Counted from the first letter of the stretch, positions 15,369 through 47,266 are shown. The stretch: DNA of 64,000 nt from Marine Group III euryarchaeote CG-Epi1 (GCA_001875345.1 MIZA01000022.1:838-64837), one strand, 5' to 3'. Numbers and translations are program-made. The notes: generated by a model from the letters alone, not told the origin.

Positions 15369-15372
15369 TATT

Positions 15373-19939: not shown

Positions 19940-20106
19940 ACATCGATGACGTAAAGATTAAGGTCAGAGAAGTTTATCGTGGACGCATTATTGGATGTGT
20001 TCTATGTGATAGAAAACGCGGACTTGTACGCAGACATGGACTAAATTTGTGTAGGCAATGTTTTAGAGACAAAGCTACCGAACTTGGTTTCAAAAAATAT
20101 GATTGA
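19936..20106 (+). CDS. rps14: 30S ribosomal protein uS14 (zinc-ribbon type)
   Basis: 56 aa from the ATG that overlaps the rpl5 TGA (ATGA), with GGAGG 11 nt upstream. [24 protein letters not shown]. The 19888 start in the ORF track would overlap rpl5 by 52 nt. Confidence 0.9.
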
Positions 20107-20113
20107 GGTATAA

Positions 20114-24093: not shown

Positions 24094-25795
24094 AGAAGAG
24101 ATACCTAGAAACCCCGCACAGGCAATCATGCCTTGCTTATCTATGATATTTCTGTACCTACTATGGTACAACTGGAAATCTCCTGAAAGTGTTAGTGCTA
24201 CCCTCATGGGTGTTGGAACAATTGGAATTACTTGGCTTGTCTATATGGGAGCTTCTTACTCTGGTGAAGGATCTAAGCTACACGGATTAAAACCTATAAT
24301 TGGAAGAATGCCTACTGTGCAAAAACCAGAAGGACACGTTCATTTTAGAACAAAAATGACATGGACTTTGGCTATTCTTATTGTTTATTTTGCTATGACA
24401 AACGTAGCTTTGTATGGTCTCGGTGGAGAAACTATTGATCTGTTCAGTCAATATCGTGCAATTCTAGCGGGTGCAAGTGGAAGTTTGATGCACTTGGGTA
24501 TTGGGCCTATCGTTACAGGAAGCATTATCATGCAATTGTTCACCGGTGCAAAGATTATTAATTTAAATCTACAAGATCCACGTGATAAGGAGATATATCA
24601 AGGAACCCAAAAAGTATTGGTTATTGTAATGATTATAGTTGAGTCTGTACCTCAAGTATTTGGATTCTTGGAACCTAGTTCAGCTCTCGTTGCTGAAGTT
24701 GGCCTTAGCTGGGCCAGAATGACTATTATTACTCAATTAGCAATTGGTTCATATCTTGTATTCTTAATGGACGAAAGTGTGTCTAAATGGGGTATTGGAT
24801 CAGGTATTTCCCTGTTTATTGCTGCAGGAGTTTCTCAGGCTATATTTACCGGAACTTTGAATTGGGAACCAGCACCAGGAAGCGGTACTGAAACGCCTTC
24901 TGGAACTCTTCCTATGATTTTATGGTATCTTAAAAATTCTTCTACTTCAGATTTGAGTGGTGGTGGTTACGAAGCTATTTTGCTTGCCCCTCCTAATCCC
25001 TTAGTTGCCTTAATTGGAACTTTTATTGTATTTTTGATTGTGGTTTATGTAGAATCTTCAAGAATTGAATTACCTTTAGCTCATGGAAAAGTTAGAGGAG
25101 CAAGAGGTAGATATCCAATTAGATTAATCTACGCAAGTAACATTCCTGTGATTTTGATGGCTGCACTATTGGCAAACGTAAACATGTTTGCTCTTTTATT
25201 CTGGTCACATCCTAGTATGTCAAAATGGCCTATTTTGGGCCACAATTGGAGACTAGGGGCTTTTGATACTACTGATGGAAGTAATCCTGTACCTACAATG
25301 GGTCTAGCTTACTACGTTAATCGGCTAGCTGGTCTTCAAGACTGGTTCTTACCTTTAGTAAGTCCCGATAAATATGGTGCATACATGGGTGACCATGAAC
25401 CATGGCAGCTTGTTGCCCACATTGTCATTTACATGTCCATTATGGTCTTTGGATCTATTGTTTTTGCTAAGTTTTGGATTGAGACTACAAATATGGGACC
25501 TGAAGCTGTAGCTAAGCAAATTCAAGGTTCAGGTATGCAAATTCCAGGATTCCGAAGAGACCCAAGAATTGTTGAAAAAGTTTTGGAAAGATACATTCCT
25601 ACTGTTACCGTTTTCAGTGGTGCTGTTGTTGGATTTTTAGCTGCTGGAGCTGACATGATTGGTACCGTCGGACAGTCGTCAGGTACAGGGGTGCTACTTA
25701 CTGTCGGAATTATGATACGTATGTATGAACAAATTGGAAAAGAACAAATGATGGAAATGCATCCTGTTCTTCGAAGTTTCTTCGGCGAGGATTAA
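24086..25795 (+). CDS. secY: Preprotein translocase subunit SecY (start uncertain; possible ~60-aa N-terminal extension)
   Basis: HLGIGPIVTGSIIMQLFTGAKII plug/TM2 signature and 10 TM core. The canonical SecY N-terminus aligns from about LHGLKPIIGRMPTVQKP. The ORF begins 8 nt inside rpl15, and in-frame ATGs also occur in the 24.20-24.25 kb region. Confidence 0.9.
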   Translation: MAEEEIPRNPAQAIMPCLSMIFLYLLWYNWKSPESVSATLMGVGTIGITWLVYMGASYSGEGSKLHGLKPIIGRMPTVQKPEGHVHFRTKMTWTLAILIVYFAMTNVALYGLGGETIDLFSQYRAILAGASGSLMHLGIGPIVTGSIIMQLFTGAKIINLNLQDPRDKEIYQGTQKVLVIVMIIVESVPQVFGFLEPSSALVAEVGLSWARMTIITQLAIGSYLVFLMDESVSKWGIGSGISLFIAAGVSQAIFTGTLNWEPAPGSGTETPSGTLPMILWYLKNSSTSDLSGGGYEAILLAPPNPLVALIGTFIVFLIVVYVESSRIELPLAHGKVRGARGRYPIRLIYASNIPVILMAALLANVNMFALLFWSHPSMSKWPILGHNWRLGAFDTTDGSNPVPTMGLAYYVNRLAGLQDWFLPLVSPDKYGAYMGDHEPWQLVAHIVIYMSIMVFGSIVFAKFWIETTNMGPEAVAKQIQGSGMQIPGFRRDPRIVEKVLERYIPTVTVFSGAVVGFLAAGADMIGTVGQSSGTGVLLTVGIMIRMYEQIGKEQMMEMHPVLRSFFGED

Positions 25796-26409
25796 TGCCC
25801 ATTTACGGCGAATCCATTATCGAAGATGATTGTTTTATTGATTCAGATGCTTTAATTGGTTATCCTCACTCAAAAGAATTAGAGAAAGAATCTAAAGAAA
25901 TTGCAGGATGTGAGATCGGAGCCGGATCAATCATAAGGCCTGGGTCCGTATATTCTACCGCTAAATTAGGTAAAAAAACTAGAACTGGGCACAACTTTCT
26001 TGTTCGTGAAAATACTACAATAGGAGATGGATGCTTAATAGGAACTAATGTTGTTGTAGATAATAATTGTACCATTGGGAATTATTGTAGTTTTCAAACT
26101 GGAGCATACATTCCCACTGGAACTGTCATTGGAGATAGAGTATTTCTTGGTCCAAATGCATCTCTAACAAATGATAAAATGCCTTTAAGAACAGAATATC
26201 ATTGTGACCCTATTACTATTGAAGACGATGTTTCTGTTGGGTCTAATGCAACTATAATGCCTGGATTAACAATTGGAGAAGGTGCATTCATTGCTGGAGG
26301 AGCTGTTGTTACCAAAGACGTTCCTGCTTGGCATATGGCAAAAGGATGTCCTGCAGTTTTTAGTAAACTACCAGATAATTTAAAAAAACCTAATAGGTTG
26401 GGACCGTAG
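25795..26409 (+). CDS. Hexapeptide-repeat (left-handed beta-helix) acyltransferase
   Basis: 204 aa. Repeated [LIV]-G-x4 hexads (IGDGCLIGTNVVVDNNCTIGNYCSFQTGAYIPTGTVIGDRVFLGPNA...VGSNATIMPGLTIGEGAFIAGGAVV). TAATG overlap with secY. Confidence 0.8.
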   Translation: MPIYGESIIEDDCFIDSDALIGYPHSKELEKESKEIAGCEIGAGSIIRPGSVYSTAKLGKKTRTGHNFLVRENTTIGDGCLIGTNVVVDNNCTIGNYCSFQTGAYIPTGTVIGDRVFLGPNASLTNDKMPLRTEYHCDPITIEDDVSVGSNATIMPGLTIGEGAFIAGGAVVTKDVPAWHMAKGCPAVFSKLPDNLKKPNRLGP

Positions 26410-26410
26410 A

Positions 26411-26947
26411 ATGAGTATTGTAATCGTAACTGGAGTTCCTGGCGTTGGAAAAAGTACCGTCATGAATGCTGCAAAAGATTTTGGTTATAATATTGTTAAC
26501 TTTGGAACGACTATGTTCGAAGAAGCTCAAAAAGAAGGTGTTTCTAATCGAGATGATTTGAGAAAACTCCCTGTTGACGTTCAAAAAAGATTACAAAAAC
26601 AAGCTGGTGAAAAAATAGGCCAGATGGATAATGTAATAGTTGATACTCATGCTTCTATACTCACACCTTCGGGATACCTTCCTGGACTCCCTGAATGGAC
26701 CGTTAAGGCGATTATGCCTAATACAATTGTACTCGTTGAGGCCCTTCCTGAAGAAATTGAAAATAGACGTTCTAAAGACACTTCAAGAGCTCGAGACAAA
26801 GATGATATTGGGTTACACCAAAGAATCAATAGAGAGTATGCCATTGCTGCAGCTTTTATGACTGGAGCAACGGTTGGATTTGTGCCTAATAATGACAATA
26901 AAATAGAAATTGCTGTTGAAAAATTCAAAAAAATTCTTAATAAATGA
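26411..26947 (+). CDS. adkA: Archaeal-type adenylate kinase
   Basis: 178 aa. IVIVTGVPGVGKSTV P-loop and overall pattern of AdkA. Conserved position after secY. Confidence 0.88.
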   Translation: MSIVIVTGVPGVGKSTVMNAAKDFGYNIVNFGTTMFEEAQKEGVSNRDDLRKLPVDVQKRLQKQAGEKIGQMDNVIVDTHASILTPSGYLPGLPEWTVKAIMPNTIVLVEALPEEIENRRSKDTSRARDKDDIGLHQRINREYAIAAAFMTGATVGFVPNNDNKIEIAVEKFKKILNK

Positions 26948-27603
26948 GTGAAGAAAAAGTAGATGCTGAAGAAGAATTGCAACCTCCTGCAATCGGAGGA
27001 ACTTTTCTAACAATGATGTTTATGCTTTGGATAATTATTAATCCTGATTTAAGAGATTTTATGGGAGAATCTGCTGGTACTGTGTTAGAACCTAGAATAA
27101 CATTTGACCATCAATACCCTGTACTTACTTTTCTCTTTGCAGGAATTATTATGATTTCATTTACAACTATCATTCGTCACTTCATTATTGACTGGGAAAA
27201 GATGGCTGAAATCCAAACCAAAATGGCAGCGTACAATAAAGCAATGGGGGAAGCAAGACAAAGTGGTAACGAAGCCAAAATGAAGAAACTATTTGCGATG
27301 CAACCTCAAATTATGCTATTACAAAGTGAAATGATGTCTAATCAAATGAAACCAATGGCTTTCACAATGATAATAGCAATACCTATCATTATGTGGCTAC
27401 GAATATTTGTCAACGGTTTAGACTTACAAGTAATTTCTTTACCTTGGGAACCAAATTATAGTTTAGATGATGATTTATGGATTTTACCGCATTGGATCTT
27501 GGTTTACTCTGGATTATCCTTACCTTTCGGGCAAATAATTATGCGTATCTTGAAAATTGGCTCAAACCGTGGAAGTGGTTCAGTAACTGAAATCATTAAT
27601 TAA
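26944..27603 (+). CDS. DUF106/EMC3-like membrane protein (archaeal YidC/Oxa1-superfamily insertase candidate)
   Basis: 219 aa. 3 TM segments plus an amphipathic coiled segment (KMAAYNKAMGEARQSGNEAKMKKLFAMQPQIMLLQSEMMSNQMKP). Conserved secY-adk-DUF106 synteny in archaea. Confidence 0.7.
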   Translation: MSEEKVDAEEELQPPAIGGTFLTMMFMLWIIINPDLRDFMGESAGTVLEPRITFDHQYPVLTFLFAGIIMISFTTIIRHFIIDWEKMAEIQTKMAAYNKAMGEARQSGNEAKMKKLFAMQPQIMLLQSEMMSNQMKPMAFTMIIAIPIIMWLRIFVNGLDLQVISLPWEPNYSLDDDLWILPHWILVYSGLSLPFGQIIMRILKIGSNRGSGSVTEIIN

Positions 27604-28209: not shown

Positions 28210-28980
28210 ATGGCGTGGAAGAAGGGAAAAAAACCAGAACAATATCTGTTCACAATCACTGATGAATTCTCTGATAATTGGAAATCTTTCAAAGAAGAGG
28301 CCAAAGATAATAACCAAAATATTAGCGAACTATTAAGAAATACTGTAAGTTCAAAATTAAAAAATAATGCAGCTAAAAAAGCCTTAGTCCTTAGTCCCCA
28401 TACTGACGATGCAGAATTAGGTTGTGGAGGGACTATTGCCAAACTTATTGAAGAAGGCTGGAAAGTCCATGTAATCTATTTTAGTGCTGTAGCTGAAAGA
28501 TATCCTAATTTAGTGGAAGAAGCTGCAAATTCAGGCAAAATATTAGGAATTACGCATGAGGTTCTAGATTTTCATACTAGGTTTTTTCCAAGAGATAGAC
28601 AAGAAATTCTTCAAGCACTCTACGATCATTCTAGAAGTATAAATTATGATTTAGTTTTCACTCCCACTACTACCGATATTCACCAAGATCATGGAGTGGT
28701 AACAGCTGAAGCGAAAAGAGCTTTTAGGAATTGTACTTTACTTGGATATGAGCTGCCTTGGAATAACTTATCTGTTTCACTAAATTGCTTTATTCCGCTT
28801 GAAGAAAGACACATAAAGAAAAAAATATTAGCATTGGATTGCTATGATAGTCAGAAACACAACCCTTATTTTAGTGAGAAATTTTTTAGATCTGTAGTGA
28901 AAATGAGAGGTATACAATTATCAAGTCCTTTTGCTGAAGGATTTGAGACGATTAAAGTGAGGTTAGATCAACTGTTATGA
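28210..28980 (+). CDS. PIG-L/LmbE-family deacetylase with N-terminal ribbon-helix-helix-like extension
   Basis: LVLSPHTDDAELGCGGTIAKL (PIG-L signature) and later HQDH. The first ~50 aa (YLFTITDEFSDNWKSFKEEAKDNNQNISELLRNTVSSKL) fit the strand-helix-helix pattern of the CopG/Arc family. Confidence 0.8.
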   Translation: MAWKKGKKPEQYLFTITDEFSDNWKSFKEEAKDNNQNISELLRNTVSSKLKNNAAKKALVLSPHTDDAELGCGGTIAKLIEEGWKVHVIYFSAVAERYPNLVEEAANSGKILGITHEVLDFHTRFFPRDRQEILQALYDHSRSINYDLVFTPTTTDIHQDHGVVTAEAKRAFRNCTLLGYELPWNNLSVSLNCFIPLEERHIKKKILALDCYDSQKHNPYFSEKFFRSVVKMRGIQLSSPFAEGFETIKVRLDQLL

Positions 28981-30119
28981 CGAAAATTGCGATGGTTTTG
29001 GGTCATGATTTGTTAATTCCTAATGAAGATACTAGAGTTTATCGAGAAGCTTTAGCTCTAATTAAAGCTGGATACGAAGTAACTGTTTTTTGTTGGTCTA
29101 GAAGATTAGAGAAATATGATACAAAATGGGAAGTCGAGAGAGACGGGATTAAAGTCATTCGTATTTTTGAAGATTTGAAAGGAGGGTTCTTTTCCAAAGT
29201 TAAAAGTTTTAGAAAAGCACTAAAAAAGCTTGAGGAAAAAGTTACTGAGTATGAACCAGATCTTATTCATGCTCACGATTTGGAAGTTCTTGATGTGGCT
29301 GTAAATATTAAAAATAAAACTGGTACTAAGATTATCTTTGATTCTCATGAAGATTGGCCAATGATGGAAAGTGTTCAAAACTGGTTTATTGGAAAATATT
29401 ATGAAAGAAAACAGAAAAAATTAATTGGAAAAGTAGATGCAATGTTAACTGTTTCAGATGAACTGGCTCTTAGATTAGGTGGCGGTACTGTTTTGTATAA
29501 TTCTGAACTATTGGAGACTGTCAAAAAACCGGTTTTACATGATAGGTTCGGTTTGGATGGTATAGTTGCAGGCTATATTGGAGGGTTAAGAAAGCCTATT
29601 CTAGAAGAAATACTAGATGCTGCGTCTAAAGTTAATGCATTGAGTATTTTGATTGTTGGAGGGCCTCCTAAAGGACATTCAGGATATACGGACATGATTT
29701 CTGAGCTTGAAGAGTTAGCCTTAGAAAAAGGTGCTAATGCTAAGTTTACTGGACCTTTACCATATAGTATGATGAATGAATGCTACGCTGCATGTGATAT
29801 TCTGATGGTAGGGCATTATGTTGATGAAAGAATGAGAGGCTATGCTTTACCAAAGAAATTATTAGATTCCATGGCTTACAAAGTTCCTGTTATTGTAGGG
29901 CCTTATGAAGCTCGTCAAAAAATAGTTGAAAGATATGAATGTGGCCTTGTAACTGAAGATTGGACTGATGCCTTGACTACTCTAGCTAATGATAAAGAAC
30001 TTAGGAAAAAAATGGGCGAGAATGGCTATAAAGCATTTAAAATGAATTACTCATGGGAACTTCAAGAGAAAAAAATGCTCGAAGTATACGACGAATTATT
30101 GAAAGAGGAAGGACAATGA
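28977..30119 (+). CDS. Glycosyltransferase family 4 (GT-B fold)
   Basis: 380 aa. The N-terminal half has the typical IHAHD...FDSHE pattern. The C-terminal half has a GT1/GT4 nucleotide-sugar binding pattern (LPKKLLDSMAYKVPVIV...ECGLV). ATGA overlap with the deacetylase. Confidence 0.8.
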   Translation: MTKIAMVLGHDLLIPNEDTRVYREALALIKAGYEVTVFCWSRRLEKYDTKWEVERDGIKVIRIFEDLKGGFFSKVKSFRKALKKLEEKVTEYEPDLIHAHDLEVLDVAVNIKNKTGTKIIFDSHEDWPMMESVQNWFIGKYYERKQKKLIGKVDAMLTVSDELALRLGGGTVLYNSELLETVKKPVLHDRFGLDGIVAGYIGGLRKPILEEILDAASKVNALSILIVGGPPKGHSGYTDMISELEELALEKGANAKFTGPLPYSMMNECYAACDILMVGHYVDERMRGYALPKKLLDSMAYKVPVIVGPYEARQKIVERYECGLVTEDWTDALTTLANDKELRKKMGENGYKAFKMNYSWELQEKKMLEVYDELLKEEGQ

Positions 30120-31126
30120 GAGTTCTGTTAACAGGGGTGGGATGTCCCGGTGCACATGCCTTAATTTCGAACTTAAAATTGCAAGATGAAAGTATCTTCA
30201 TATTAGGCACAAATGCAAATGAGCAAGCTATCGGTAGGTGGCTATGTGACGATTTTGCAGTTGTTCCTTGGGCTTACGAAGAAAATTATATTGATTCTAT
30301 AATTGATTTGGTCAGAAAAAACAATATTGATATTGTATTTCCACAGACTTCATGGGAGATGTTTCATCTTTCGAAAGCCTCCAAAGAAATTGAAAAATAC
30401 TGTAGACTGCTGGCTTCAAAACATGAACTAGTAGCCATTTGTGAAAATAAGTATCTAATGTACAAACACTTCGAAGGGAAAATTGATGTCCCTCAATTTT
30501 ACTTGGTTAAAACAATGGCTGAACTAGTTAAAGCTGCTGAAAAATTAGGATATCCTGAGAAGGATGTTGTATTCAAACCTCCAGAAGGAAAAGGTGCTCG
30601 AGGGGTGAGAGTTCTAACCGAGAAATCTGATAGATATGATCTTTTGTTTAATGGAAGGCCTTTTGCAAAATATATCTCGATTGATGAACTAAAGTCTACG
30701 GTTGGCAAAAACGAAATACCTGAACTAATGGTAATGGAATATTTAGAGGGCGTGGAGTTAAAAATTGATCCTGTTCTGAAGAATGGAGAAATGCTAACCT
30801 GCTCTGTTAAAAATAGATTAAACTTTGCATCTGGTTTAGCAATGGGGTTTGAAATGATTGATGATAATGAAGCTATTAACTATGCTAGAAGTTTATTGAA
30901 ACATCTTCCAATGGATTATTGTATTGACATCTCAACTAGAGGAGGAGTTCTCATGGAAATTAATCCACGAGTTTCTACATACATTTATAGTAAAAATTAT
31001 TGTGCCCCTTATCTCGCTTTGAAACTAGCAATGGAAGAGATGTCTGCCGATGAAGTTAAAGATTACCAAACGAAACTTCCAATTGGCAAAAAAATGTTTA
31101 GGTACTACGGCCAGATAGACTATTAG
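30116..31126 (+). CDS. ATP-grasp domain ligase
   Basis: 336 aa from the ATG that overlaps the GT4 TGA (ATGA). MRVLLTGVG pre-ATP-grasp start, KPPEGKGARGVRV, MEYLEGVE, MEINPRVS motifs. Confidence 0.8.
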   Translation: MRVLLTGVGCPGAHALISNLKLQDESIFILGTNANEQAIGRWLCDDFAVVPWAYEENYIDSIIDLVRKNNIDIVFPQTSWEMFHLSKASKEIEKYCRLLASKHELVAICENKYLMYKHFEGKIDVPQFYLVKTMAELVKAAEKLGYPEKDVVFKPPEGKGARGVRVLTEKSDRYDLLFNGRPFAKYISIDELKSTVGKNEIPELMVMEYLEGVELKIDPVLKNGEMLTCSVKNRLNFASGLAMGFEMIDDNEAINYARSLLKHLPMDYCIDISTRGGVLMEINPRVSTYIYSKNYCAPYLALKLAMEEMSADEVKDYQTKLPIGKKMFRYYGQIDY

Positions 31127-31534: not shown

Positions 31535-31741
31535 ATGGAATGGCAAGTAACTATTGATGACAAAATAGAAACTATTGTTTTACCCGATGGAAGTACTGCT
31601 AATGATCTTGTCAATCATTTAAATTTACATCCAGATGGTGTTTTGGTTGTCACTGATGAAGAGAAAATGAAGCCTATTCCCTTAGTCATAGCCTTACCTA
31701 AAAAACCGATTAGAATTATTCTAGTTGCTTCTGGCGGATAA
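31535..31741 (+). CDS. ThiS/MoaD-family ubiquitin-like protein (SAMP-like) with C-terminal Gly-Gly
   Basis: 68 aa ending ...ILVASGG*. The size and the V-NG/D-like middle (LHPDGVLVVTDEE) fit beta-grasp sulfur-carrier or modifier proteins. Confidence 0.65.
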   Translation: MEWQVTIDDKIETIVLPDGSTANDLVNHLNLHPDGVLVVTDEEKMKPIPLVIALPKKPIRIILVASGG

Positions 31742-31795: not shown

Positions 31796-34700
31796 ATGGC
31801 AAAGAAATCTGTGAAAAAAGAAACGGCGTCGAAAAAAAGTACGCCTAAGAAATCTCCTGCCAAAAAAAGCCCTACTGCGAAAAAAACTCAAACAAAAAAA
31901 GCGGTTGCAAAGAAAACTTCTACTAAACAAACTAAATTACAAGACAATCAAAAGAAAGGTAAATTAACAGTAAGTCAAAGAGAAAGAGACGAAATTGATG
32001 CAGTTATGGATACTTTGTGGGCTTTTGTAGGGGCTCTAAAAAATTCATGGAAAAATACGAGAGCTATTTTGTTAGCTGGTATTTTCATTGGACTAATCGG
32101 CGTAACTTTCTCTGGCTATGGTCAAGAGTTGGTTGGTGTTGAACAGTCTGGAATTTGGTACGCAATTACTGAAAATCCTGAAGATTTAGAAGCTTCTTTT
32201 GATCCTGTATTCAATAATCGACAATATCTAGAATATTCTTCTGGGGATGAAATTAGAATAGAAGGAAAATTAACTGATATTAGATACTATGGAGATATTG
32301 AAGATGGGTTATATCCTATCCCTCCCAGTGGTTTAGATCCTGCGGTTGCACCAGGGGACAGCTTCAAAATTCTACAGCCTGGGACTACTGACTCTTTATT
32401 TCCAGTACTCTCTGAAAATAATAGTGAAATGAATATTAATTTTGCCAGTGGATTGGAATTTCAAAGAGTGCATTTCAATAATACTGACTTAACCGCAGCA
32501 GTTTTCACCAACGTAAAATTTACCGATGTTTTATTTTCAGAATATTCCTTTACAGATTCTTTCTTTATAGATTGTAGTTTTGAAAGAGTTACTTTTGCAG
32601 ATGTCGATTTTAGTAAGTCTGTGATGTCGAATGTGACTTTTGATGCTGTACTATTCAACAATGTCACTATGGATTCAAATAGAATTGAAAAGAGCGTATT
32701 GGATACCTTTTTGGTTAGAAGCTCTACATTTAATTCTGTTACATTTGATAAGACTGAAATTACAGGAACTAAGTGGTCACAGTCTGCTTTAAACGACGGA
32801 ATTTTCCAAAGAAGCTCAATGGATGTAGTCATCTTTAGAGATCTGGAAGTCAATGATTTTTATCTGATAGACTCAAAAATCAATTATAATTTTGATGTTC
32901 CTCTTACTTCAACTTTTGATCATACGTTTATTGAACTTGGAGAAGCTACTGTAGTCGTAGGAGGAAATGTCGAAGATGAATACGCTGCCGGAGCTCATCT
33001 TTATTTTGGAAATGCTAAAGTAAAATTGGGTGGATTAGCTGCCGGAACTGCTCCAACATACGGCGGTTGGGAGCCTGGAAGTGTAACTGGTCAAGGTTTT
33101 CAAAAATTAAATTCAGGTAACTTATCTGTAAATTTAAATTATGAATACATTTATTCTGATTCTAAGGATATTGACATTACTTTCTGGTGGAATATTGCCT
33201 TTGATTGTATTGCGGTATTGGGTCTTGGAATTCTGATATATGCTATAGGTGGACCTAGCGCAATGCTTGGACTTTTCAAGTTTCTTTCACCATTCATAAT
33301 GACTGGCGCTTTCTTCGTTGTAATGTTTTTGAGCATGGGACAAAGAGAATTCTTAATTCTTTCTCAACTAATGCTTGTTTATTTTGTTCCACCGTTTGGT
33401 AAAGGTACTGTGGTTCCGCTTGGAATTGCAGGCGGAGTTGATCCTTGGGCTATCGCAATTTGTACTGCATTTGTCGATATTGCAGTAGGTGTTTTCCTAA
33501 CTTGGAATTTTGACTTGGCAAAGAAAATACCCTTCATTGGTAGCGGAATTAATCGAATTCAGATTAAAGGAAAAGCTATGTTGAAAGATTTACCATGGTT
33601 GGAAAGAGCTTCTTTTGTAGGTATTGTTGTATTTGTTATGTTCCCATTCCAAGGTTCAGGTGCAGTTGGAGGAACCATCTTAGGAAGAGCTATTGGTTTA
33701 TCACCAAATAGGAATTTGAGTGCTGTTGCTATTGGAGCTATAAGTGGGTCACTAATTCTATCTGCTTCTGTAGTTTATGGATTAGGTGTCTTGGCTATCT
33801 TAGCTCCTCTACAAATTGCAGTAACTGTAATGTTTATTGGACTGTGTCTTGTTATCTATTATTTGTATCAACATTGGGAAGAGATCAAGTTGGAAGATGT
33901 TTCACAAACGATTGGAGGCGTTTCACAAACTCTTGGCCTTCACAAGGAAGGACTCATCGGAGCACCAATCAATGCTAGCGTTGGGGCGCTTGGAACTGCC
34001 GGTGGAACTGTTCTAAAGGTTACTGGAGATACAAGTCGTACTGTTCTTGGAGCTGTTGGACAAACTGGTAAAAACATAACTAAAACCACCGGTGATTTCA
34101 TAGGTTCTTTAGCTGGATCTTTTGCTGATGATAAATCTGACTATGCAGATAGTACTAAACCCACTGAGTTAGACTCAGGAGTATTGGTTTCCATGGCAGA
34201 ACAAAAAACAAAGAATAGAGTTGTAGTTACTGGCGGTGCAGGATTTATTGGATCTCACCTAGTAGATCGCTTAGTAAAAAGAGATGAAGAAGTTGTAGTT
34301 TTAGATAATTTTTCTTCTGGCCAATTAGAATTCCTCGAAGAATCAATTGAAAATATTACCTTGATTGATATTGACCTACTTAATGAGGACTTTGCAGGAT
34401 ATTTAGAGGGAGCGAAAATCGTATACCATTTAGCTGCTAACCCTGAAGTTCAACTAGGAATTACTAAGCCTGAAGTCATGCAGGAACAAAATGTAGACGT
34501 TACAAAGCGCGTTTTAGAAGCTATGAAATTAGCTGGATGTGAAAATATTGTCTTTACTTCTACTTCAACAGTTTATGGAGATGCAGAGAAGATTCCAACA
34601 CCAGAAACTGCAGAACTAAAACCAATTTCTGCGTATGGAACTAGTAAACTAGATGCTGAAAAATTAATCGAAAAGTATTGTAAAGAGAATAACTTCCGAG

Positions 34701-35161
34701 GAGTTTCTTACCGATTTGCAAATTGTGTAGGTCCTCGTAGTAACCATGGAGTTACCTTTGACTTTGTGAATAAATTAAGGAAAGATAACAATAATTTAGA
34801 AATTTTAGGAGATGGAAAGCAAAAGAAATCTTATTTCCATGTTGAAGATTGTATTTCAGGTATGCTAAATATGGCTCCAGGTGAACTCTGTGAAAAAGGG
34901 GAAATGGCTGCCCTTAACGTAGGCTCGAAAGATGCAATTGATGTTATTACTTTAGCTGATCAAGTTTGTAAAGCAATGAAATTAGATGATGTAGAATATT
35001 CCTTTACTGGTGGAGTTGATGGAGGAAGAGGCTGGAAAGGAGATGTTAAATTTATGCGATTGGATATTAAGGCATTGATGAAACATGGATGGACTCCTCA
35101 ATATACCAGTCGAAGAGCCATTAAGGAAACTGCAACCTGGCTTCACAAAAACTCTGAATAA
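31796..35161 (+). CDS. Multidomain membrane protein: Lys-rich tail, pentapeptide-repeat domain, polytopic membrane domain, C-terminal NAD-dependent epimerase/dehydratase
   Basis: Single 1121-aa ORF. aa 1-55 are KKSxxKK repeats, followed by a TM segment. aa 222-361 are 28 consecutive pentapeptide repeats. aa ~465-700 form a multi-TM domain resembling the 'small multidrug export' family (PLGIAGGVDPW..., FPFQGSGAVGGTILGRAIGL). A Gly-rich linker follows. aa 800-1121 are an SDR epimerase (VVVTGGAGFIGSHLVDRL, YGTSKLDAE). Confidence 0.7.
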   Translation: MAKKSVKKETASKKSTPKKSPAKKSPTAKKTQTKKAVAKKTSTKQTKLQDNQKKGKLTVSQRERDEIDAVMDTLWAFVGALKNSWKNTRAILLAGIFIGLIGVTFSGYGQELVGVEQSGIWYAITENPEDLEASFDPVFNNRQYLEYSSGDEIRIEGKLTDIRYYGDIEDGLYPIPPSGLDPAVAPGDSFKILQPGTTDSLFPVLSENNSEMNINFASGLEFQRVHFNNTDLTAAVFTNVKFTDVLFSEYSFTDSFFIDCSFERVTFADVDFSKSVMSNVTFDAVLFNNVTMDSNRIEKSVLDTFLVRSSTFNSVTFDKTEITGTKWSQSALNDGIFQRSSMDVVIFRDLEVNDFYLIDSKINYNFDVPLTSTFDHTFIELGEATVVVGGNVEDEYAAGAHLYFGNAKVKLGGLAAGTAPTYGGWEPGSVTGQGFQKLNSGNLSVNLNYEYIYSDSKDIDITFWWNIAFDCIAVLGLGILIYAIGGPSAMLGLFKFLSPFIMTGAFFVVMFLSMGQREFLILSQLMLVYFVPPFGKGTVVPLGIAGGVDPWAIAICTAFVDIAVGVFLTWNFDLAKKIPFIGSGINRIQIKGKAMLKDLPWLERASFVGIVVFVMFPFQGSGAVGGTILGRAIGLSPNRNLSAVAIGAISGSLILSASVVYGLGVLAILAPLQIAVTVMFIGLCLVIYYLYQHWEEIKLEDVSQTIGGVSQTLGLHKEGLIGAPINASVGALGTAGGTVLKVTGDTSRTVLGAVGQTGKNITKTTGDFIGSLAGSFADDKSDYADSTKPTELDSGVLVSMAEQKTKNRVVVTGGAGFIGSHLVDRLVKRDEEVVVLDNFSSGQLEFLEESIENITLIDIDLLNEDFAGYLEGAKIVYHLAANPEVQLGITKPEVMQEQNVDVTKRVLEAMKLAGCENIVFTSTSTVYGDAEKIPTPETAELKPISAYGTSKLDAEKLIEKYCKENNFRGVSYRFANCVGPRSNHGVTFDFVNKLRKDNNNLEILGDGKQKKSYFHVEDCISGMLNMAPGELCEKGEMAALNVGSKDAIDVITLADQVCKAMKLDDVEYSFTGGVDGGRGWKGDVKFMRLDIKALMKHGWTPQYTSRRAIKETATWLHKNSE

Positions 35162-36051: not shown

Positions 36052-37896
36052 ATGTTAGAAGCAATTATTGTTGCTAATGTGGCCCTCTGCATAATCTTTG
36101 GCACTACATTAATAATTCGAAATTATGATGTTCCTAGAATTCTAGGAAAAGAAACTAAAACTTTAGGAATTGTGATTCTCCTAATCCTCGCTTTCGCTCT
36201 CAATTTTACACCTTTAGTATCGGCAGAAGATAGTGATGGAGACGGAGTTGAGGATGCTCTTGATGAATGTCCTGATAATCTAACTGGTGAAAACTTTACA
36301 GTTGCTGCAAACGGGTGCTCTTATCCTTCCTATTTGGACAATGTTTGGATGTGTATAGGGGGTGGAGTTATGGTTCAAGACCTAAGTGGTAACGATGAAG
36401 AAGAATGTAGCGTTACAATTAGTTCTGATGGTGTCTATATGACAATTTCAACTCCTGGTATTGCTAATCACGATATGGAAGGTGGAACTGCTGGAAATAT
36501 TGTAGCTCAAGACTTTGATTGGAAATTGCCTTTGACTCCAACAAATAATACAAATTGTAATCCTAGTGTATCAATAGATGGATGTGATATAGCTCCGGAT
36601 CGTGGGCCTGTTGCTGTTGCAGTTAATGGTGTTCCTTTCTACGGGCCTGAAGACGGTCCTGGAGGAGATGCTGTAGCACATGAGATAGGCATATACGATG
36701 AGGACCGCCAAGAAATTGATTTAGGAATTTGTGGAGCACATACGGGACCTGGTGGATACCACTACCATTTTGATGGAAATTGTATGCACTGGCATAATGA
36801 AACCAATGAACATTCTGACTACGAATTTAGTAAAATAGATAACAGTACTCACTCCCCGATTATTGGGTTTGCATTTGATGGATATCCTATTTACGGTTCT
36901 TACGGGCATGTAGACGGGGATGTTACTTTGATGAGAAGTAATTACATTCTAAAGGAAAATAGCGGAATGGGATACAATGGAATTGACGATTATGAATATA
37001 GTCCGGATAACGGAGGACATCTTGATGCATGTAATGGAAGATTTAGCCCTACCCCAGAATTCCCTGATGGAATTTACCACTACTATTCAACAATGCCTGA
37101 CATGGGAGATAATCCCAATGCAAACAATGCCTTTCCATACTTCATAAATTGCTACCGCGGAATCTCAGAAACTTCTAACGAAGATGGGGGCGCACTAGAC
37201 GGAGGTGGTGAAGAACCAGGTCAAAATGGACCTCCTGATGATGATGGTGATCACGTGGGTAACGGTTGGGATATGTGCGCGGACACCGGAGACACAACCT
37301 ATCCTGATGGCGATCCTATCTATCCCCGAGGGTGTACAGAGGAACAATTTAACTTACTAAGCTCAGATGATAAAAATATTACTAAAATTGCATATGCTGG
37401 CGACAGTCCTCCGGCACCTCCTGACGAAGATGGTGATGGAATACCTGATCCTTTAGATGATTGTGAAAATACTGAAGCTGGAAATCTAGTATATGCCGAT
37501 GGATGTGCACACCTAGAATCCTCTGGAAACGAAACTGCGCCTGACGGCGATAATGATGGAATCCCAGACGACGAAGATAACTGTCCTAATGAGAATGCTT
37601 CTGGTTACGATGCTGATGCTGATGGTTGTGTGGATGACTCTGATAATGATGGCGTAAAAGACATTGAAGATATTTGCCCATTCGATCCTGCCGATGGATG
37701 TCCTGCAGCATTACAGGATGTAGAAGGTAACATGACTGAAGAAATTCCTGGCTGTGTACACCAAAGTGCCGAAAATTACAACCCTGATGCTACAGAAGAT
37801 GATGGGTCTTGTACATATGAAGAAGATACTCCTGGATTTGGATTGTTGGTTGCTTTGATCGGCGTTATCGGTGTTGCTTTTAGAAGAAGAAATTAA
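36052..37896 (+). CDS. Surface protein with YHYH-motif domain, thrombospondin type-3-like Ca-binding repeats and PGF-CTERM anchor signal
   Basis: 614 aa. GGYHYHFDGNC and GIYHYYS motifs. DxDxDGxxDxxDxC repeats (DSDGDGVEDALDECPD, DEDGDGIPDPLDDCEN, DGDNDGIPDDEDNCPN, DSDNDGVKDIEDICPF). C-terminal TPGFGLLVALIGVIGVAFRRRN. Confidence 0.75.
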   Translation: MLEAIIVANVALCIIFGTTLIIRNYDVPRILGKETKTLGIVILLILAFALNFTPLVSAEDSDGDGVEDALDECPDNLTGENFTVAANGCSYPSYLDNVWMCIGGGVMVQDLSGNDEEECSVTISSDGVYMTISTPGIANHDMEGGTAGNIVAQDFDWKLPLTPTNNTNCNPSVSIDGCDIAPDRGPVAVAVNGVPFYGPEDGPGGDAVAHEIGIYDEDRQEIDLGICGAHTGPGGYHYHFDGNCMHWHNETNEHSDYEFSKIDNSTHSPIIGFAFDGYPIYGSYGHVDGDVTLMRSNYILKENSGMGYNGIDDYEYSPDNGGHLDACNGRFSPTPEFPDGIYHYYSTMPDMGDNPNANNAFPYFINCYRGISETSNEDGGALDGGGEEPGQNGPPDDDGDHVGNGWDMCADTGDTTYPDGDPIYPRGCTEEQFNLLSSDDKNITKIAYAGDSPPAPPDEDGDGIPDPLDDCENTEAGNLVYADGCAHLESSGNETAPDGDNDGIPDDEDNCPNENASGYDADADGCVDDSDNDGVKDIEDICPFDPADGCPAALQDVEGNMTEEIPGCVHQSAENYNPDATEDDGSCTYEEDTPGFGLLVALIGVIGVAFRRRN

Positions 37897-37898
37897 TC

Positions 37899-39380
37899 TT
37901 AAACTAAAGGAATTAAGTCAATATCAGATTCGTACAAGCTAGGGCCTGCTTCAAGGTAATAGACCGAACCCAATCTATCTCTTGAATTTGATGAAGAAGT
38001 ATCCTCTCCAGAGGCGCAAGTTCCTGTACATCCATCTGCAAATGCAATGTATACTCTTCCTTCTAAGTCAATGTGTAGGTCGTTAAAGTCTAGCAGATTA
38101 CGGTTGGAACCGCCTTCGTTAGAGCGACAGTCTCCACTATTTAGACAAATACTTCCGACTTGAACTGGATCTGTAGTGAGTCTTTGAGTGTGAAAAATAG
38201 GATTTTCATCAAGAGCATTCAGGCTGTATGTAACGTACAAGTGGTGACTGACATTTGTAGTAGCATAATGTGCATTACCATTCCAGGGATTTCCATCTAT
38301 ATCTGGCTGACCTAGTGCACTAGCGTTTTCACTTCCAAGATAGGCTATAGCTATTCTCCCAGGATCTCCAGCTGAAGTGTGTGGGAAAGTAGCAGAAATC
38401 ACTTCAATTGGACTGACTCTGATGCTTGTTTGGTCCCATGTATTGCCTGAATCTATACTTCTGGACATGTAGACTCCCTGATCTCCGCCTACCCATACAT
38501 TGTAAGCATTAGATTCGGTATCTGTGGCTATTTCGCCATTCTTACGAGGATTTGGAGTTCCTACGTCTTGACCCATAGTCCTTTCTTCCCAAGTAAGGCC
38601 ATTATCTTTAGAAAAAATAATTGCAGGAGTTGCTACTCTAGGTGGAAGATAAACAGTACCGTCAGGTGCACTTGTGATTGCTCCATGCAAGCCTCCATTT
38701 GCTGTTGCTATTCCAACTAAGTTACCTCCTACTTCGAAAGAAGCACCTCCATCATAACTAGTGTAACATGAAATGTAAGCTAACTTATTGTAACAAAAGT
38801 AAACTGCAGTTTCATAAAAACTTGAGGATGCTCCACCTCCAATTCCATACCCTGCATTTGTCCAAGGTCCTGAACCTAGTTTGATATGGTCATTAACCGG
38901 GGCTCCAGAATCGTGAGGGTTAGCTTCCCAACTTTCACCGTCATTATCGGTCCATCCGATCCATGTTGTCCAAAGTCCCATCATATGGATATTGAAAACT
39001 CGGTCAGTAATTGGATCTACCCAACCGTAAGGATCATTTGTGAAAAATGCTTGAGAAGCATCTGCCGTATTTTCCCAAGTAAGGCCACCATCACATGATC
39101 TCATTGGTTTTTCAAATGCAATAAAGAAAATACAGCCGCTAGAAGTAACGCCCAAACTAGGTTCTGCGCCTTGCTCCCCTACATTACTGAAGTAAAATTG
39201 CATTTCTAATGGTGCTACATCTGTATAGTTACCAGTTGAATCTGTAACAAAAAAACCGTCAGGAAGTCCTGCTTCTACGATGATAGGAGAATTATCTGAA
39301 GAATCTTCATTTAAACAGCCTGACAGCGATGTTGCCATCACAAAAATGACTGCGAAAAATGAGTTCCACTCTTTGCCCAT
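37899..39380 (-). CDS. BNR/Asp-box repeat (sialidase-like beta-propeller) lipoprotein
   Basis: 493 aa. N-terminal signal with lipobox-like LSGC. Asp-boxes SCDGGLTWEN, TDNDGESWEA, SYDGGASFEV, SKDNGLTWEE, SIDSGNTWDQ. Confidence 0.75.
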   Translation of the reverse strand: MGKEWNSFFAVIFVMATSLSGCLNEDSSDNSPIIVEAGLPDGFFVTDSTGNYTDVAPLEMQFYFSNVGEQGAEPSLGVTSSGCIFFIAFEKPMRSCDGGLTWENTADASQAFFTNDPYGWVDPITDRVFNIHMMGLWTTWIGWTDNDGESWEANPHDSGAPVNDHIKLGSGPWTNAGYGIGGGASSSFYETAVYFCYNKLAYISCYTSYDGGASFEVGGNLVGIATANGGLHGAITSAPDGTVYLPPRVATPAIIFSKDNGLTWEERTMGQDVGTPNPRKNGEIATDTESNAYNVWVGGDQGVYMSRSIDSGNTWDQTSIRVSPIEVISATFPHTSAGDPGRIAIAYLGSENASALGQPDIDGNPWNGNAHYATTNVSHHLYVTYSLNALDENPIFHTQRLTTDPVQVGSICLNSGDCRSNEGGSNRNLLDFNDLHIDLEGRVYIAFADGCTGTCASGEDTSSSNSRDRLGSVYYLEAGPSLYESDIDLIPLV

Positions 39381-39428
39381 ACTAGTTATCCTGCAAGCTG
39401 CCTGATATACTTTACTAATTTTTAAGTA

Positions 39429-41750
39429 TTAACTACTGAACGAACGGCGACCCCAGAATACTAATGCCAAAGCACCACCTGCAAATCCGCCTGCTCCAGC
39501 TAAGAGAGCTACGTTTCTAATTGTCCAGACTGATTCTTCAATTTCCTGAATTGTTTCAACTTCCATTTGTAATCTACTTAGATTAAATGCATTGAAATTC
39601 ATTTCAATAAAATTAGTACCATTGTAAGCTGATGAAGGCTCTCCAAATTCTAATTTAGAGATACATGCTTGATTTGCTGTGTTCATATTAACTCCATCAG
39701 TAGAACATGCATAATCTCCATAATTTGTCATATTTTCATCAACATAATGATCTCCGGTTCCCATGATTAATCGAACATTTACATCATACGGGACACGCGG
39801 TTCCCAGAATTCTTCAAGTGTTGCCCCTTGATTTGGTTTAATTCCTACTGCAGTTCCTTCAATACCAAACACCCAAAGGTGTCCGCTGCTTGAATCGTCT
39901 ACTGCTATTGAATACTCTTTAGCATTAGTGTTGGTTCCGAGACTTTGAGAATTGTCGTTTGAACCATCGCTGTTAATGTCTATTGATAATTCTAAATCTG
40001 CAACTGTAAATCTATCTGTATTAACTTGCGGATAAGAGAGTACAATTTCAGCACTTACTGTTCCTTCTGGAACATGTAAGTAGTGGGTAGAATCTGTAAC
40101 ATAAGTTCCGCTACTGCCGACAAAGTATGCCCACTCCCCTTTCCAATCTGCTTTTAACGTATCTGTGAACTGTTTTGCCTTGTGAATGTGAGATATGCCT
40201 AACATTGCATCTCTAGCATCAAAAACGGTAACCATTTCATTATCCGGCATACCGTCGCCATCCTCATCTGCATTTCTCATGCTTTCTAGAGTCAATGCCA
40301 TTTGAATTGCATATTTTGTATCAATTAGTCCATGACCTTGTCCCCAATCGTGTGTCATTCCTGTTTTACTTACAGTTCCATTAGCATTTGATTGTCCGCC
40401 CTGGATATATTTCCCAGAAAGCTCCATGATTAATTCTGCTTCAGAAACAAAAGTATCGATTCTATCTCCATACCACTCACCTTCAAGGGTTTCATGGTCT
40501 TCATAGAGATAATCTGCAACTCCTAGTGATGGTGCTGCTTGGTACAATAGAGTTGCTACTCCAGCAATGTGTGGTGTTGCCATTGAAGTACCTGAAATTG
40601 CCATGTAGTACAAGTCATCATCTGATGGACGTTGAATAATATCAATTAGAGTTGCACGAGGGGCTGTTGCCCATATCTCAACACCTGGAGCGCCGATATC
40701 TGGCCATGTTTGTGGTTTGGTCATGTCTCCTCTAGATGAGAATCCTGCTATTCCAGAACCATCATGTTCAAGAGCTGCAACTCCAATTACTAGAGGAATA
40801 CTTGCATACGGATTTGTTTGTAAATCACTACCGTCTCCTCCTGAATTTCCTGCTGCAAATACTGAAACCACATTGTTATCGTATTGTAAATTTAGAACCG
40901 CTTGAGAAACTGCATTAGATGGATCATATTCTGAACCTGAACTTCCCCATGAATTGGATGTGACTCGAATATTCAACGGATTTGCATCAGGCCTTGAATT
41001 GTCGTAAACCCATTGGAAAGCTTCAACTGCATTATCGATGAATGCGATATCTCCGACTCCCATTCCAACCAATGTTGCGCCTGGAGCTACTCCTTTCTTA
41101 GCTCCTGCAGATGCATCACCATTACCTCCAACGGTTCCTGCACAGTGAGTACCATGCCCGCTAGATGTGTCTGAGTTTTCTGCTTCTATCCAAGTTCTAG
41201 TGGCTCTATCAAATTTGTAAGAAACCGTTTTACCTTCATCGTAGTCAAAATCTGGGTGGCCAGCATCGACACCTGTGTCAATAATTACTGCGGCTACTCC
41301 TGTCCCATCAATGTATGTGTGTTGATCTGCTTGATCTGCAATTACTTGCTCATCCTCGTTAATAATAACAGTCTGCCAAGTTTCTACTGCATTGATAACT
41401 CTTGTAGTATCTTGCATGTAATATTCCATTTGTGAATTATGCTCTATCCAAAAGATATCATCTTGTTTGCTTAGATCTCTAATTTGAGATGCCGTAGCTT
41501 TTCCAAAGAATCCATCAATAAATTCAAAAATACTAATAACTTCAATACCAATTCCCTCTGCTGTTTGTAAGTGCTGATTTGTAAGTTCAGGTCGATATTG
41601 AACGATAAATTCAATTTGTGTATTAGCGTCTGCATCGTCCATAGCTCTAACTATATTCGGGTGTAAAACGTTCTCATTAGCTGGTGCTGATGCGCCAATA
41701 TTACTGATAAGTAAAATGGCAAACATAGCTAAGGCTACCTTTTGTTGCAT
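39429..41750 (-). CDS. Subtilisin-like serine protease (S8 family) with C-terminal membrane anchor
   Basis: 773 aa. Catalytic triad motifs IDTGVDAGHPDF (Asp), HGTHCAGTVGG (His), SGTSMATPHIAG (Ser). Signal peptide present. C-terminal VALLAGAGGFAGGALALVFWGRRSFSS. Confidence 0.9.
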   Translation of the reverse strand: MQQKVALAMFAILLISNIGASAPANENVLHPNIVRAMDDADANTQIEFIVQYRPELTNQHLQTAEGIGIEVISIFEFIDGFFGKATASQIRDLSKQDDIFWIEHNSQMEYYMQDTTRVINAVETWQTVIINEDEQVIADQADQHTYIDGTGVAAVIIDTGVDAGHPDFDYDEGKTVSYKFDRATRTWIEAENSDTSSGHGTHCAGTVGGNGDASAGAKKGVAPGATLVGMGVGDIAFIDNAVEAFQWVYDNSRPDANPLNIRVTSNSWGSSGSEYDPSNAVSQAVLNLQYDNNVVSVFAAGNSGGDGSDLQTNPYASIPLVIGVAALEHDGSGIAGFSSRGDMTKPQTWPDIGAPGVEIWATAPRATLIDIIQRPSDDDLYYMAISGTSMATPHIAGVATLLYQAAPSLGVADYLYEDHETLEGEWYGDRIDTFVSEAELIMELSGKYIQGGQSNANGTVSKTGMTHDWGQGHGLIDTKYAIQMALTLESMRNADEDGDGMPDNEMVTVFDARDAMLGISHIHKAKQFTDTLKADWKGEWAYFVGSSGTYVTDSTHYLHVPEGTVSAEIVLSYPQVNTDRFTVADLELSIDINSDGSNDNSQSLGTNTNAKEYSIAVDDSSSGHLWVFGIEGTAVGIKPNQGATLEEFWEPRVPYDVNVRLIMGTGDHYVDENMTNYGDYACSTDGVNMNTANQACISKLEFGEPSSAYNGTNFIEMNFNAFNLSRLQMEVETIQEIEESVWTIRNVALLAGAGGFAGGALALVFWGRRSFSS

Positions 41751-47207: not shown

Positions 47208-47266
47208 CTATTTTTTGAGAAAGGAGTAGGTTATAAACTCACATGTTATGGATTTAATATTCATTT

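Follow-up and report, generated by a model that had tools for sequence, protein, structure and literature searches.

The archaeal GDP-sugar 4-epimerases form a recently defined and promiscuous subgroup of enzymes (PMC12171764). The PF06695 family of membrane proteins has been placed in the DedA superfamily with HHpred/HHsearch probabilities of 98-99% (10.1101/2020.12.18.423352; PMC7818093). For bacterial DedA proteins a flippase function has been proposed, with undecaprenyl phosphate and phosphatidylethanolamine as substrates, and some of these proteins are fused to a PAP2 phosphatase that acts at a sequential step of the lipid II cycle. Here we describe a gene of the Marine Group III (MGIII) euryarchaeote CG-Epi1 (GCA_001875345.1) in which a PF06695 domain and a predicted epimerase of this kind are joined in one open reading frame (ORF). 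The gene lies within a stretch of 64,000 nucleotides (MIZA01000022.1:838-64837), referred to below as the window, and comparison of related loci indicates that it encodes a single polypeptide, which arose by fusion of two adjacent genes that are still separate in sister lineages.

The ORF runs for 1121 codons without interruption at 31796..35161 on the plus strand, and its product begins with MAKK. At the window's GC content of 38%, about 6.6% of random codons would be stops, and by an arithmetic estimate an ORF of 1121 codons would arise by chance with p ~1e-33. A first-pass annotation of the window had listed eight segments in this ORF and had not recognised their order in any described protein. 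Profile scans, hydropathy, composition and structural modelling with AlphaFold2 (AF2) recovered all eight, and a word-indexed protein search found the same Pfam architecture in 41 full-length cluster representatives of 1087-1144 amino acids (aa), at identities down to 53%. The gene and its parts, including a short-chain dehydrogenase/reductase (SDR) domain and several transmembrane (TM) helices, are as follows; pLDDT is the per-residue confidence of the AF2 model.

31796..35161, plus strand: the whole fusion gene, a single ORF, stop codon included.
31796..31969, plus strand: Lys-rich low-complexity tail, residues 1-58 (21 Lys in 58, net charge +19; AF2 pLDDT <50), probably cytoplasmic.
31970..32056, plus strand: juxtamembrane helix VSQRERDEIDAVxD..W.F, residues 59-87; columns V59-D72 invariant.
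32057..32119, plus strand: TM helix 0 (TM0), residues 88-108, predicted to run from inside to outside; hydropathy peak 2.02, a helix in the AF2 model.
32120..32434, plus strand: acidic pre-repeat ectodomain, residues 109-213, with the motif EPGDxIxIEG..I.YYG.
32435..32893, plus strand: pentapeptide-repeat beta-helix, residues 214-366, presumably extracellular; ~29 pentads in ~7 coils.
32894..33175, plus strand: Gly-rich, beta-rich stalk between rod and membrane, residues 367-460; 14 Gly in residues 376-460, strands at pLDDT ~40-70.
33176..33340, plus strand: two TM helices with an invariant tight turn, YAIGG, residues 461-515, from hydropathy; Y482, A483 and G485 invariant.
33341..33880, plus strand: PF06695 (DedA-superfamily) core, residues 516-695, from the profile match and the AF2 model.
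33881..34213, plus strand: Gly/Thr-rich linker, predicted to be cytoplasmic, residues 696-806; 17 Gly, invariant motif LGLHxEGxIGAP, MGIII-specific junction.
34214..35158, plus strand: NAD-dependent extended SDR of the archaeal GDP-sugar 4-epimerase (GDP-Gal4E) subgroup, residues 807-1121, from profiles and PDB matches.

The automated public name of the 1121-aa protein is "NAD-dependent epimerase/dehydratase family protein", and family members are also filed publicly as 'pentapeptide repeat-containing protein' and 'small multi-drug export protein'. When the literature was searched for PF06695/DedA, the legacy name 'small multi-drug export' and Marine Group III, none of the titles or abstracts found described such an architecture or a PF06695-epimerase association. 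Each domain of the fusion belongs to a known family, and it is the combination that is new to the literature searched, the proteins themselves being already in databases under generic names.

Related loci were collected by a metagenome scan followed by ORF and BLAST analysis, and were counted where both domains were visible. The membrane domain and the SDR share one ORF in 65 of 66 MGIII loci, at membrane-domain identities of 52-100%, and genome-collection matches at 93-97% identity came from bins labelled MGIII-CG-Epi1, Thermoplasmata or Methanobacteriota. The exception, L038 (2597/2604), has a frame change inside the linker and is the source of a 723-aa database fragment (P0042); P0043, a further protein that stops mid-linker, is most likely also incomplete. 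A few metagenome contigs (L038, L062, L094) have the reading frame interrupted within the linker, the membrane domain or the ectodomain; these breaks are probably sequencing errors or pseudogenes.

An exhaustive HMMER search with residues 1-800 retrieved proteins of 601-767 aa that extend from the tail and TM helix through the ectodomain and the pentapeptide repeats to PF06695 and lack the SDR. In the 13 split loci one gene encodes the ectodomain with PF06695 and the other the epimerase; the stop and start codons overlap by 4 nucleotides (nt) as ATGA in 12 of them, and an 11-nt gap separates the genes in the remaining one (L024). The split lineage is marine, has a GC content of 55-62% and is possibly Marine Group II (MGII), and its SDRs are 57-63% identical to the fused SDR. 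In L022 an 80-aa SAMP2-like gene is followed by a 767-aa membrane protein and then by a 316-aa epimerase whose ATG overlaps the TGA, the three being 46%, 39% and 61% identical to their counterparts in the window. In the more distant L024 the epimerase is 57% identical and the 71-aa upstream protein ends in IASGG. Three loci of Methanomassiliicoccales type hold an ectodomain-less PF06695 gene (263-270 aa, 46-50% identical) with an SDR gene 15-25 nt later, whose 318-aa product is 47-49% identical to the fused SDR, GGVDxGRGWKGDV motif included. Genes for giant PKD/He_PIG/CARDB surface proteins come directly after these pairs in two of the three loci. A 216-aa ORF upstream of PF06695 in one locus of this type (L011) was considered as a detached counterpart of the ectodomain and was rejected, as no similarity was found.

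The first-pass annotation had held that stop codons between the modules in orthologous loci would make the fusion an artefact. On that reading a sequencing or assembly error erased the stop between two genes. A stop is indeed present at that place in the sister-lineage loci, and one MGIII contig (L038) is broken in the linker. However, the L038 break is a frame change within the linker with no gene boundary, residues in the junction and the linker are invariant, and the single frame is seen in 65 loci from many assemblies and several MGIII lineages. Because 65 of the 66 MGIII loci keep the fusion in one frame, the stop in the sister lineage points to an evolutionary gene fusion rather than to an assembly error, and we rejected the artefact as next to impossible. 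On this comparison the two-gene order is ancestral, with the two genes apparently translationally coupled through ATGA in the sister lineages, and the fusion would have arisen most simply by loss of the stop within the ATGA overlap. The locus is a classical Rosetta-stone fusion, in which a PF06695-epimerase partnership kept across several Thermoplasmatota lineages has become one gene in MGIII.

The first half of the linker (LGLHxEGxIGAP...) corresponds to the C-terminus of the split orthologues, and an alignment of 29 sequences shows invariant columns in both linker and junction. M800, eight codons ahead of the SDR, is not conserved in the alignment, and there is therefore no conserved internal start. 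Peptides of the fusion protein that span the junction include ELDSGVLVSMAEQK and NRVVVTGGAGFIGSHLVDR. Residues 727-780 (window ~33974-34135) are made of four to five tandem 11-residue Gly/Thr-rich units (TVLKVTGDTSR / TVLGAVGQTGK / NITKTTGDFIG ...), and 7 of the 29 aligned sequences have gaps of exactly 11 residues, at three different positions. These units could form an amphipathic repeat at the membrane surface or a docking site for the epimerase.

The C-terminal SDR domain was matched by the PF01370 Epimerase profile at 167.3 bits (cut-off 20.9) and covered positions 2-331 of 332 of the GDP_Man_Dehyd profile, and it has a Rossmann motif of the GxxGxxG type, TGGAGFIGS, at residues 812-820. 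The best PDB matches were 8RDG (4.5e-84), 3EHE (5.6e-84), 3ICP (4.6e-75) and 3AW9 (3.7e-68), with the next group at 3e-34. Foldseek with the weak full-length model recovered SDR structures alone and put the same PDB entries on top. The domain had been called a full-length UDP-sugar 4-epimerase/dehydratase-type SDR; it is a full-length extended SDR, but its closest relatives are the archaeal GDP-sugar 4-epimerases, and the canonical galE equivalog TIGR01179 was missed at 138.6 bits versus a cut-off of 262.3.

The domain (C-terminal 315 residues) is 48% identical to PhGal4E_1 of Pyrococcus horikoshii (8RDG/8RDH). The catalytic triad, S922-T925, Y947 and K951, corresponds to S119-T122, Y145 and K149 of that enzyme and is invariant in the 29 sequences. 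Residues P80, N174, H182 and W277 of PhGal4E_1 are kept as P883, N976, H984 and W1080, while R83 is replaced by Q886, a Gln that is invariant in MGIII and an Arg or Lys in the split orthologues. In PhGal4E_1 the residues P80, R83, N174 and H182 position the sugar and the diphosphate, and the R83A variant retains most GDP-sugar activity and loses UDP-glucose activity (PMC12171764); we take W277 to be the Trp reported to stack on guanine (PMC12171764). Since the triad and the four subgroup residues P80, N174, H182 and W277 are kept, the SDR looks active. It is probably a nucleoside diphosphate (NDP)-hexose 4-epimerase that most likely prefers GDP-sugars.

The membrane domain had been described as having six to seven TM helices that resemble the 'small multidrug export' family. 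PF06695 (Sm_multidrug_ex) does match residues 539-653, at 43.9 bits in the full protein and 48.2 bits in the isolated domain (cut-off 30.7), and it was the sole match in a Pfam scan of 20 family members. The helix count has to be revised: an AF2 model of the domain built on 51 diverse homologues (pLDDT 89.5, pTM, the global model score, 0.73) has five membrane-spanning helices and two re-entrant helical hairpins. These follow each other in the order two TM helices (residues 461-513), hairpin 1, a TM helix, cytoplasmic amphipathic helices (NFDLAKKIPFIGSG...), hairpin 2 and two TM helices, the hairpins being read from the secondary structure of the model, without coordinates. Hairpin 1 comprises residues 516-529/536-545 (model helices 62-75/82-91) with the tip FVPPFGK, and hairpin 2 residues 600-615/622-632 (model helices 146-161/168-178) with the tip FPFQGSG. 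The Pro/Gly tips are invariant across the family and each hairpin is followed by a TM helix; the loop at 573-604 carries on average 6.4 Lys plus Arg. A search for PF06695 homologues returned 61 at E<=1e-3, and among those with a full-length gene the majority stand alone, as proteins of ~200-315 aa at 34-57% identity. Two re-entrant hairpins are the defining feature of the DedA domain (Okawa et al., Mesdaghi et al.; 10.1101/2020.12.18.423352, PMC7818093), and residues 516-695, as modelled, have this architecture. The name 'small multidrug export' is a legacy and is not to be taken as a function; the papers that we consulted report no drug efflux for a PF06695 protein.

We propose that the fusion protein is a membrane module that couples NDP-hexose 4-epimerisation with translocation of a lipid-linked sugar or of its carrier, a tentative proposal to which we give somewhat less than an even chance. 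At the membrane surface the epimerase would turn an NDP-hexose, probably a GDP-sugar, into its C4-epimer, and a separate glycosyltransferase would put the sugar on a lipid, which could be dolichyl phosphate or a membrane glycolipid. The DedA-type domain would then move the lipid-linked sugar outward, or the free carrier back inward, and the extracellular rod would serve as a rigid spacer or a docking surface for the outside step, perhaps being N-glycosylated itself. Fusion would keep the two activities close together and in a 1:1 ratio. By analogy, the dedA-pap2 fusion may be regarded as a direct precedent for a DedA-type domain combined with a pathway enzyme. The first-pass annotation had suggested coupled sugar activation, export or surface assembly. 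Functional coupling of the epimerase to the membrane module is supported indirectly, as the two lie side by side and translationally coupled in sister lineages and are paired in Methanomassiliicoccales-type loci; the rest we infer.

The membrane module might instead do no more than tether a promiscuous NDP-sugar 4-epimerase, with PF06695 moving an unrelated solute or ion, or a phospholipid in the service of general membrane homeostasis, a role proposed for several bacterial DedA proteins. PF06695 members are without a known substrate, many PF06695 genes have no sugar-gene neighbour, and bacterial DedA phenotypes include sensitivity to pH, ions and drugs. However, a single TM helix would suffice as an anchor, and the pair has been kept independently as adjacent, overlapping or fused genes in three lineages (membrane-domain identity 40-52% to the window protein), which argues for a shared pathway. 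We consider simple tethering unlikely.

The SDR could also act on the lipid-linked sugar itself, with a dolichyl-phosphate hexose bound in the DedA-type domain as its substrate. DprE1/DprE2, which epimerise decaprenyl-phosphoryl-ribose, follow an analogous logic. Such a substrate would suit an SDR fused to a putative lipid-binding domain, and the phosphate-contacting R83 is the residue swapped for an invariant Gln in MGIII. Yet the 48% identity to a soluble GDP-sugar epimerase and the retention of the N976, H984, P883 and W1080 contacts speak for a nucleotide sugar, as do the Arg or Lys at the R83 position of the split orthologues and the continued activity of PhGal4E_1 R83A on GDP-sugars (PMC12171764). 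We regard epimerisation of a lipid-linked sugar as very unlikely.

Several results weigh against the proposed coupling of epimerisation to lipid-linked translocation. In hhalign comparisons, the family profiles (Neff ~2.7, too shallow for a fair comparison) matched YdjX, YdjZ and a YdjZ-family profile with probabilities of at most 1%, the YdjZ profile being itself shallow because the YdjZ search gave only relatives of at least 72% identity. Comparison of the two hairpins with each other by hhalign put them in register, though at E=0.18, Foldseek of the confident membrane model found no solved structure at E<1, and hmmsearch of the family profile against the PDB returned nothing at E<=10. As these remote-homology tests of our own gave no match, the DedA link rests on the two papers cited above together with the helix topology of the model. 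The literature on the DedA superfamily describes the functions of PF06695 as unknown, with no member of demonstrated function. The full-length AF2 model is poor (mean pLDDT 53.8) and usable for the repeat region only, so that interdomain contacts cannot be read from it. An SDR beside PF06695 is absent in Methanomicrobiales-type loci, L014 and L023, and the adjacency may be clade-specific. In two lineages a fibrillarin gene is found two genes upstream, which suggests that the synteny may partly be inherited gene order, and the loci are phylogenetically non-independent, falling into roughly five identity bands. Finally, the conserved neighbours of the fusion in the MGIII lineages compared include no glycosyltransferase or AglB.

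The tail and the SDR are probably cytoplasmic and the repeat rod outside, with six crossings and two re-entrant hairpins in all, a topology based on hydropathy, charge distribution, stand-alone homologues and the need for a cytoplasmic NAD/NDP-sugar enzyme. The stand-alone PF06695 proteins, whose alignment begins at residue 493, lack the first helix of the TM pair (residues 461-484) and have a short charged N-terminus followed by a helix that aligns to residues 493-515. This helix should therefore run from inside to outside, and the extra helix at 461-484 should therefore bring the chain in from outside. Both ends of the PF06695 domain would be cytoplasmic. TM0 would carry the chain outward from the net +19 tail, and an acidic ectodomain of ~350 residues, with a 7-coil pentapeptide-repeat beta-helix as its core, would lie outside.

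The length and composition of the tail vary by lineage in the alignment, and the net charge of residues 1-87 ranges from -12 to +18 across the family. The adjoining motif VSQRERDEIDAVxD..W.F (residues 59-78, window 31970-32029) is near-invariant and is the best-conserved stretch of the N-terminal region, and a related juxtamembrane motif is recognisable in the distant split orthologues P0105, P0106 and P0113. The Pfam scan gave no match for residues 109-213 (~105 residues). The net charge of residues 110-213 is -15, and the EPGDxIxIEG...YYG motif of this pre-repeat region is kept even in distant orthologues.

The repeat solenoid claimed by the first-pass annotation is real, although its count of 28 pentapeptide repeats falls one short: 29 contiguous pentads with a hydrophobic centre run through residues 222-366 in perfect 5-residue register. 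The region matched Pentapeptide_4 at 48.4 bits (cut-off 38) and, weakly, LD_SV2 in the Pfam scan, and AF2 gave it a regular short-strand pattern at pLDDT 85-93. Under the definition of pentapeptide repeats in PMC8145042, residues 222-366 are a pentapeptide-repeat region. A match to the NCBIfam profile HalA (Hailong anti-phage) at 39 bits versus a cut-off of 250 was rejected, being accounted for by the pentapeptide repeats alone. Sequons, the potential sites of N-glycosylation, occur at a density of 3.0 per 100 aa in the repeat region and 1.88 per 100 aa in the whole ectodomain, versus 0.67 in the SDR. The mean net charge of the ectodomain is -32 across the family. In the deeper MGIII lineages the ectodomain evolves fastest, at 35-49% identity versus 76-81% for the SDR. 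Cys-paired insertions were seen in the ectodomain of some MGIII lineages (alignment columns ~215-235 and 485-500; for example P0016-P0032), with the sequences DDCSE...LCEKYP and GEIFCFKCDEAE and 3-5 Cys there versus one in the window protein; these insertions are consistent with an extracytoplasmic location.

Directly upstream of the fusion gene lies a small gene for a predicted ubiquitin-like (Ubl) protein, copies of which were also located in other loci.

31535..31741, plus strand: 68-aa Ubl gene, candidate SAMP2/ThiS type, product ending ...LVASGG, an ORF 54 nt upstream of the fusion.
L002 7741-7947: Ubl copy.
L018 6216-6422: Ubl copy.
L020 6737-6943: Ubl copy.
L022 117-359: Ubl copy.
L024 5620-5835: Ubl copy.

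By BLAST, a Ubl gene is found upstream in 70 of 71 loci, spaced 26-62 nt from the PF06695 gene in nearly all of them; 68 of the 70 products end in VASGG and the terminal GG is invariant. The window Ubl is 69-91% identical to the copies in four other MGIII loci. It scored 16.3 bits on the SAMP2 profile versus a cut-off of 27, with ThiS also weak, while the L022 orthologue scored 31.4 bits, above the cut-off. Public names include 'sulfur carrier protein ThiS', 'TGS domain-containing protein, Marine Group III euryarchaeote CG-Epi1' and 'hypothetical protein'. The Ubl gene is the only constant neighbour of the fusion, the others changing between lineages, and from this gene order the Ubl-GG protein appears to belong to a conserved cassette. 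It is missing from the three Methanomassiliicoccales-type PF06695-SDR pairs, and no E1-like gene was seen adjoining it in the window. In L023 (3826-8184), which represents one distant lineage, a pentapeptide-repeat/PF06695 gene without an epimerase beside it is divergent from a gene for a DsbD_2 membrane protein. Two genes further along is a member of the ThiF family (E1-like), which may be relevant to the ubiquitin-like partner elsewhere.

These observations raise a further alternative, in which the rod senses a cue from the envelope or the environment and controls the epimerase through the membrane domain, the Ubl protein possibly modifying the Lys-rich tail. The rapid evolution of the ectodomain would suit a sensor, as would a Ubl-GG gene upstream in almost all loci and a tail that is very Lys-rich in MGIII. 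On the other side, other lineages have a tail that is not rich in Lys, E1-like genes are not among the conserved neighbours, and the Methanomassiliicoccales-type loci keep the PF06695-SDR pair with neither ectodomain nor Ubl. We find a role in sensing or regulation highly doubtful, and return to the coupling of epimerisation with translocation as the reading that we favour.

The fusion gives PF06695, a widespread family of bacteria, archaea and plastids, its first functional context and a testable hypothesis, within a superfamily that has been tied to lipid-carrier recycling only recently. The fusion is relevant, too, to the question of which protein carries dolichyl phosphate or dolichol-linked sugars through archaeal membranes, a transport that a preprint on polyprenyl-phosphate transporters still treats as speculation. 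It would further tie an extracellular pentapeptide-repeat domain to a specific pathway in abundant uncultured marine archaea; such domains have a role that is still obscure, SV2 and HglK included. One may go further and take PF06695 as the archaeal translocase for dolichyl phosphate or lipid-linked sugars, and the whole as a self-contained envelope-glycosylation machine of planktonic Thermoplasmatota, with a cytoplasmic GDP-hexose 4-epimerase, a DedA-type lipid translocase and an extracellular pentapeptide-repeat rod passing the sugar on to the surface layer, controlled or modified by the Ubl protein; this extended version we think decidedly unlikely. Should the module only tether the enzyme to the membrane, the locus is still a clean example of gene fusion and improves the annotation of MGII and MGIII genomes.

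The first-pass annotation had placed the gene next to other glycan genes. This describes the window, where genes for a PIG-L-type de-N-acetylase, a glycosyltransferase of family GT4 and an ATP-grasp ligase lie upstream on the plus strand (window 28210-31126), the first two overlapping by 4 nt. The trio adjoins the fusion gene in the closest MGIII sublineage only, and a conserved glycan-gene context was rejected, as PIG-L, GT4 and ATP-grasp are not neighbours in the deeper MGIII lineages. The trio recalls pathways of the mycothiol/bacillithiol type, with their glycosyltransferase, deacetylase and ligase. Genes for tRNA-Ser(CGA) and tRNA-Glu(CUC) flank the unit. A second, separate glycan-related pair lies ~10 kb downstream of the fusion gene (window 45750-48340), namely a MOP-family (Wzx/MurJ-like, Polysacc_synt_3) flippase on the minus strand, divergent from a GT4 glycosyltransferase. 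Also downstream, at window 36052-41750, are genes for a YHYH-domain protein (thrombospondin type-3 repeat, PGF-CTERM archaeosortase signal), a BNR/Asp-box protein and an S8 subtilase, all three probable surface proteins. On the other side, window 12146-27603 holds a ribosomal-protein/SecY cluster and then, at 26944-27603, a gene for an EMC3/TMCO1-like (Oxa1-superfamily) membrane insertase. In other genomes, Methanomicrobiales-type loci (L012 5001-7550, L013 5001-6862, L017 1582-3429) have two tandem PF06695 paralogues followed by a gene of the low-molecular-weight phosphotyrosine-phosphatase family (LMWPc), a second conserved setting of PF06695 that differs from the one with the SDR.

Of the systems with which the fusion can be compared, HglK of Nostoc and the luminal domain of SV2A/B/C share a long pentapeptide-repeat beta-helix carried on a polytopic membrane protein. 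In SV2 the repeat loop is likewise non-cytoplasmic, lies between TM helices and has N-glycosylation sequons, and the fusion gives weak LD_SV2 matches; HglK is a repeat membrane protein tied to the placement of glycolipid outside the cell. There is no sequence relation beyond the repeats, HglK has 4 TM helices and SV2 has 12, and neither has an enzyme domain. By analogy the two may be taken as loose precedents for the rod as a spacer or docking element.

The archaeal GDP-sugar 4-epimerases (PhGal4E_1; Archaeoglobus GalE-1, 3EHE; Pyrobaculum, 3AW9/3ICP) have in common with the SDR the Rossmann motif, the S/T-Y-K triad and the residues P80, N174, H182 and W277. The known enzymes of this subgroup are soluble proteins of ~310-326 aa, whereas here the domain forms the C-terminal end of a protein with several membrane spans, and the MGIII fusion has an invariant Gln where PhGal4E_1 has R83. 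With the PF06695/DedA superfamily (UptA, PetA, YqjA, TMEM41B, VMP1) the fusion has in common a Pfam match above the cut-off and Pro/Gly-tipped hairpins, each with a TM helix after it; it differs in an extra TM hairpin that bears a large ectodomain. The dedA-pap2 fusions resemble it in that a DedA-type domain is joined or adjacent to an enzyme of a lipid-linked glycan pathway, but the partner there is a lipid phosphatase and here a nucleotide-sugar epimerase.

The Methanomassiliicoccales pair (263-270-aa PF06695 protein and 318-aa epimerase) has the same module order and strand, without the ectodomain, the extra TM helices, the linker or the Ubl. The split marine orthologues (a 742-767-aa 'pentapeptide repeat-containing protein' and a 316-aa epimerase) share the modules, their order, the strand and the Ubl-GG gene upstream with the MGIII fusion, and differ in that they are two polypeptides rather than one.

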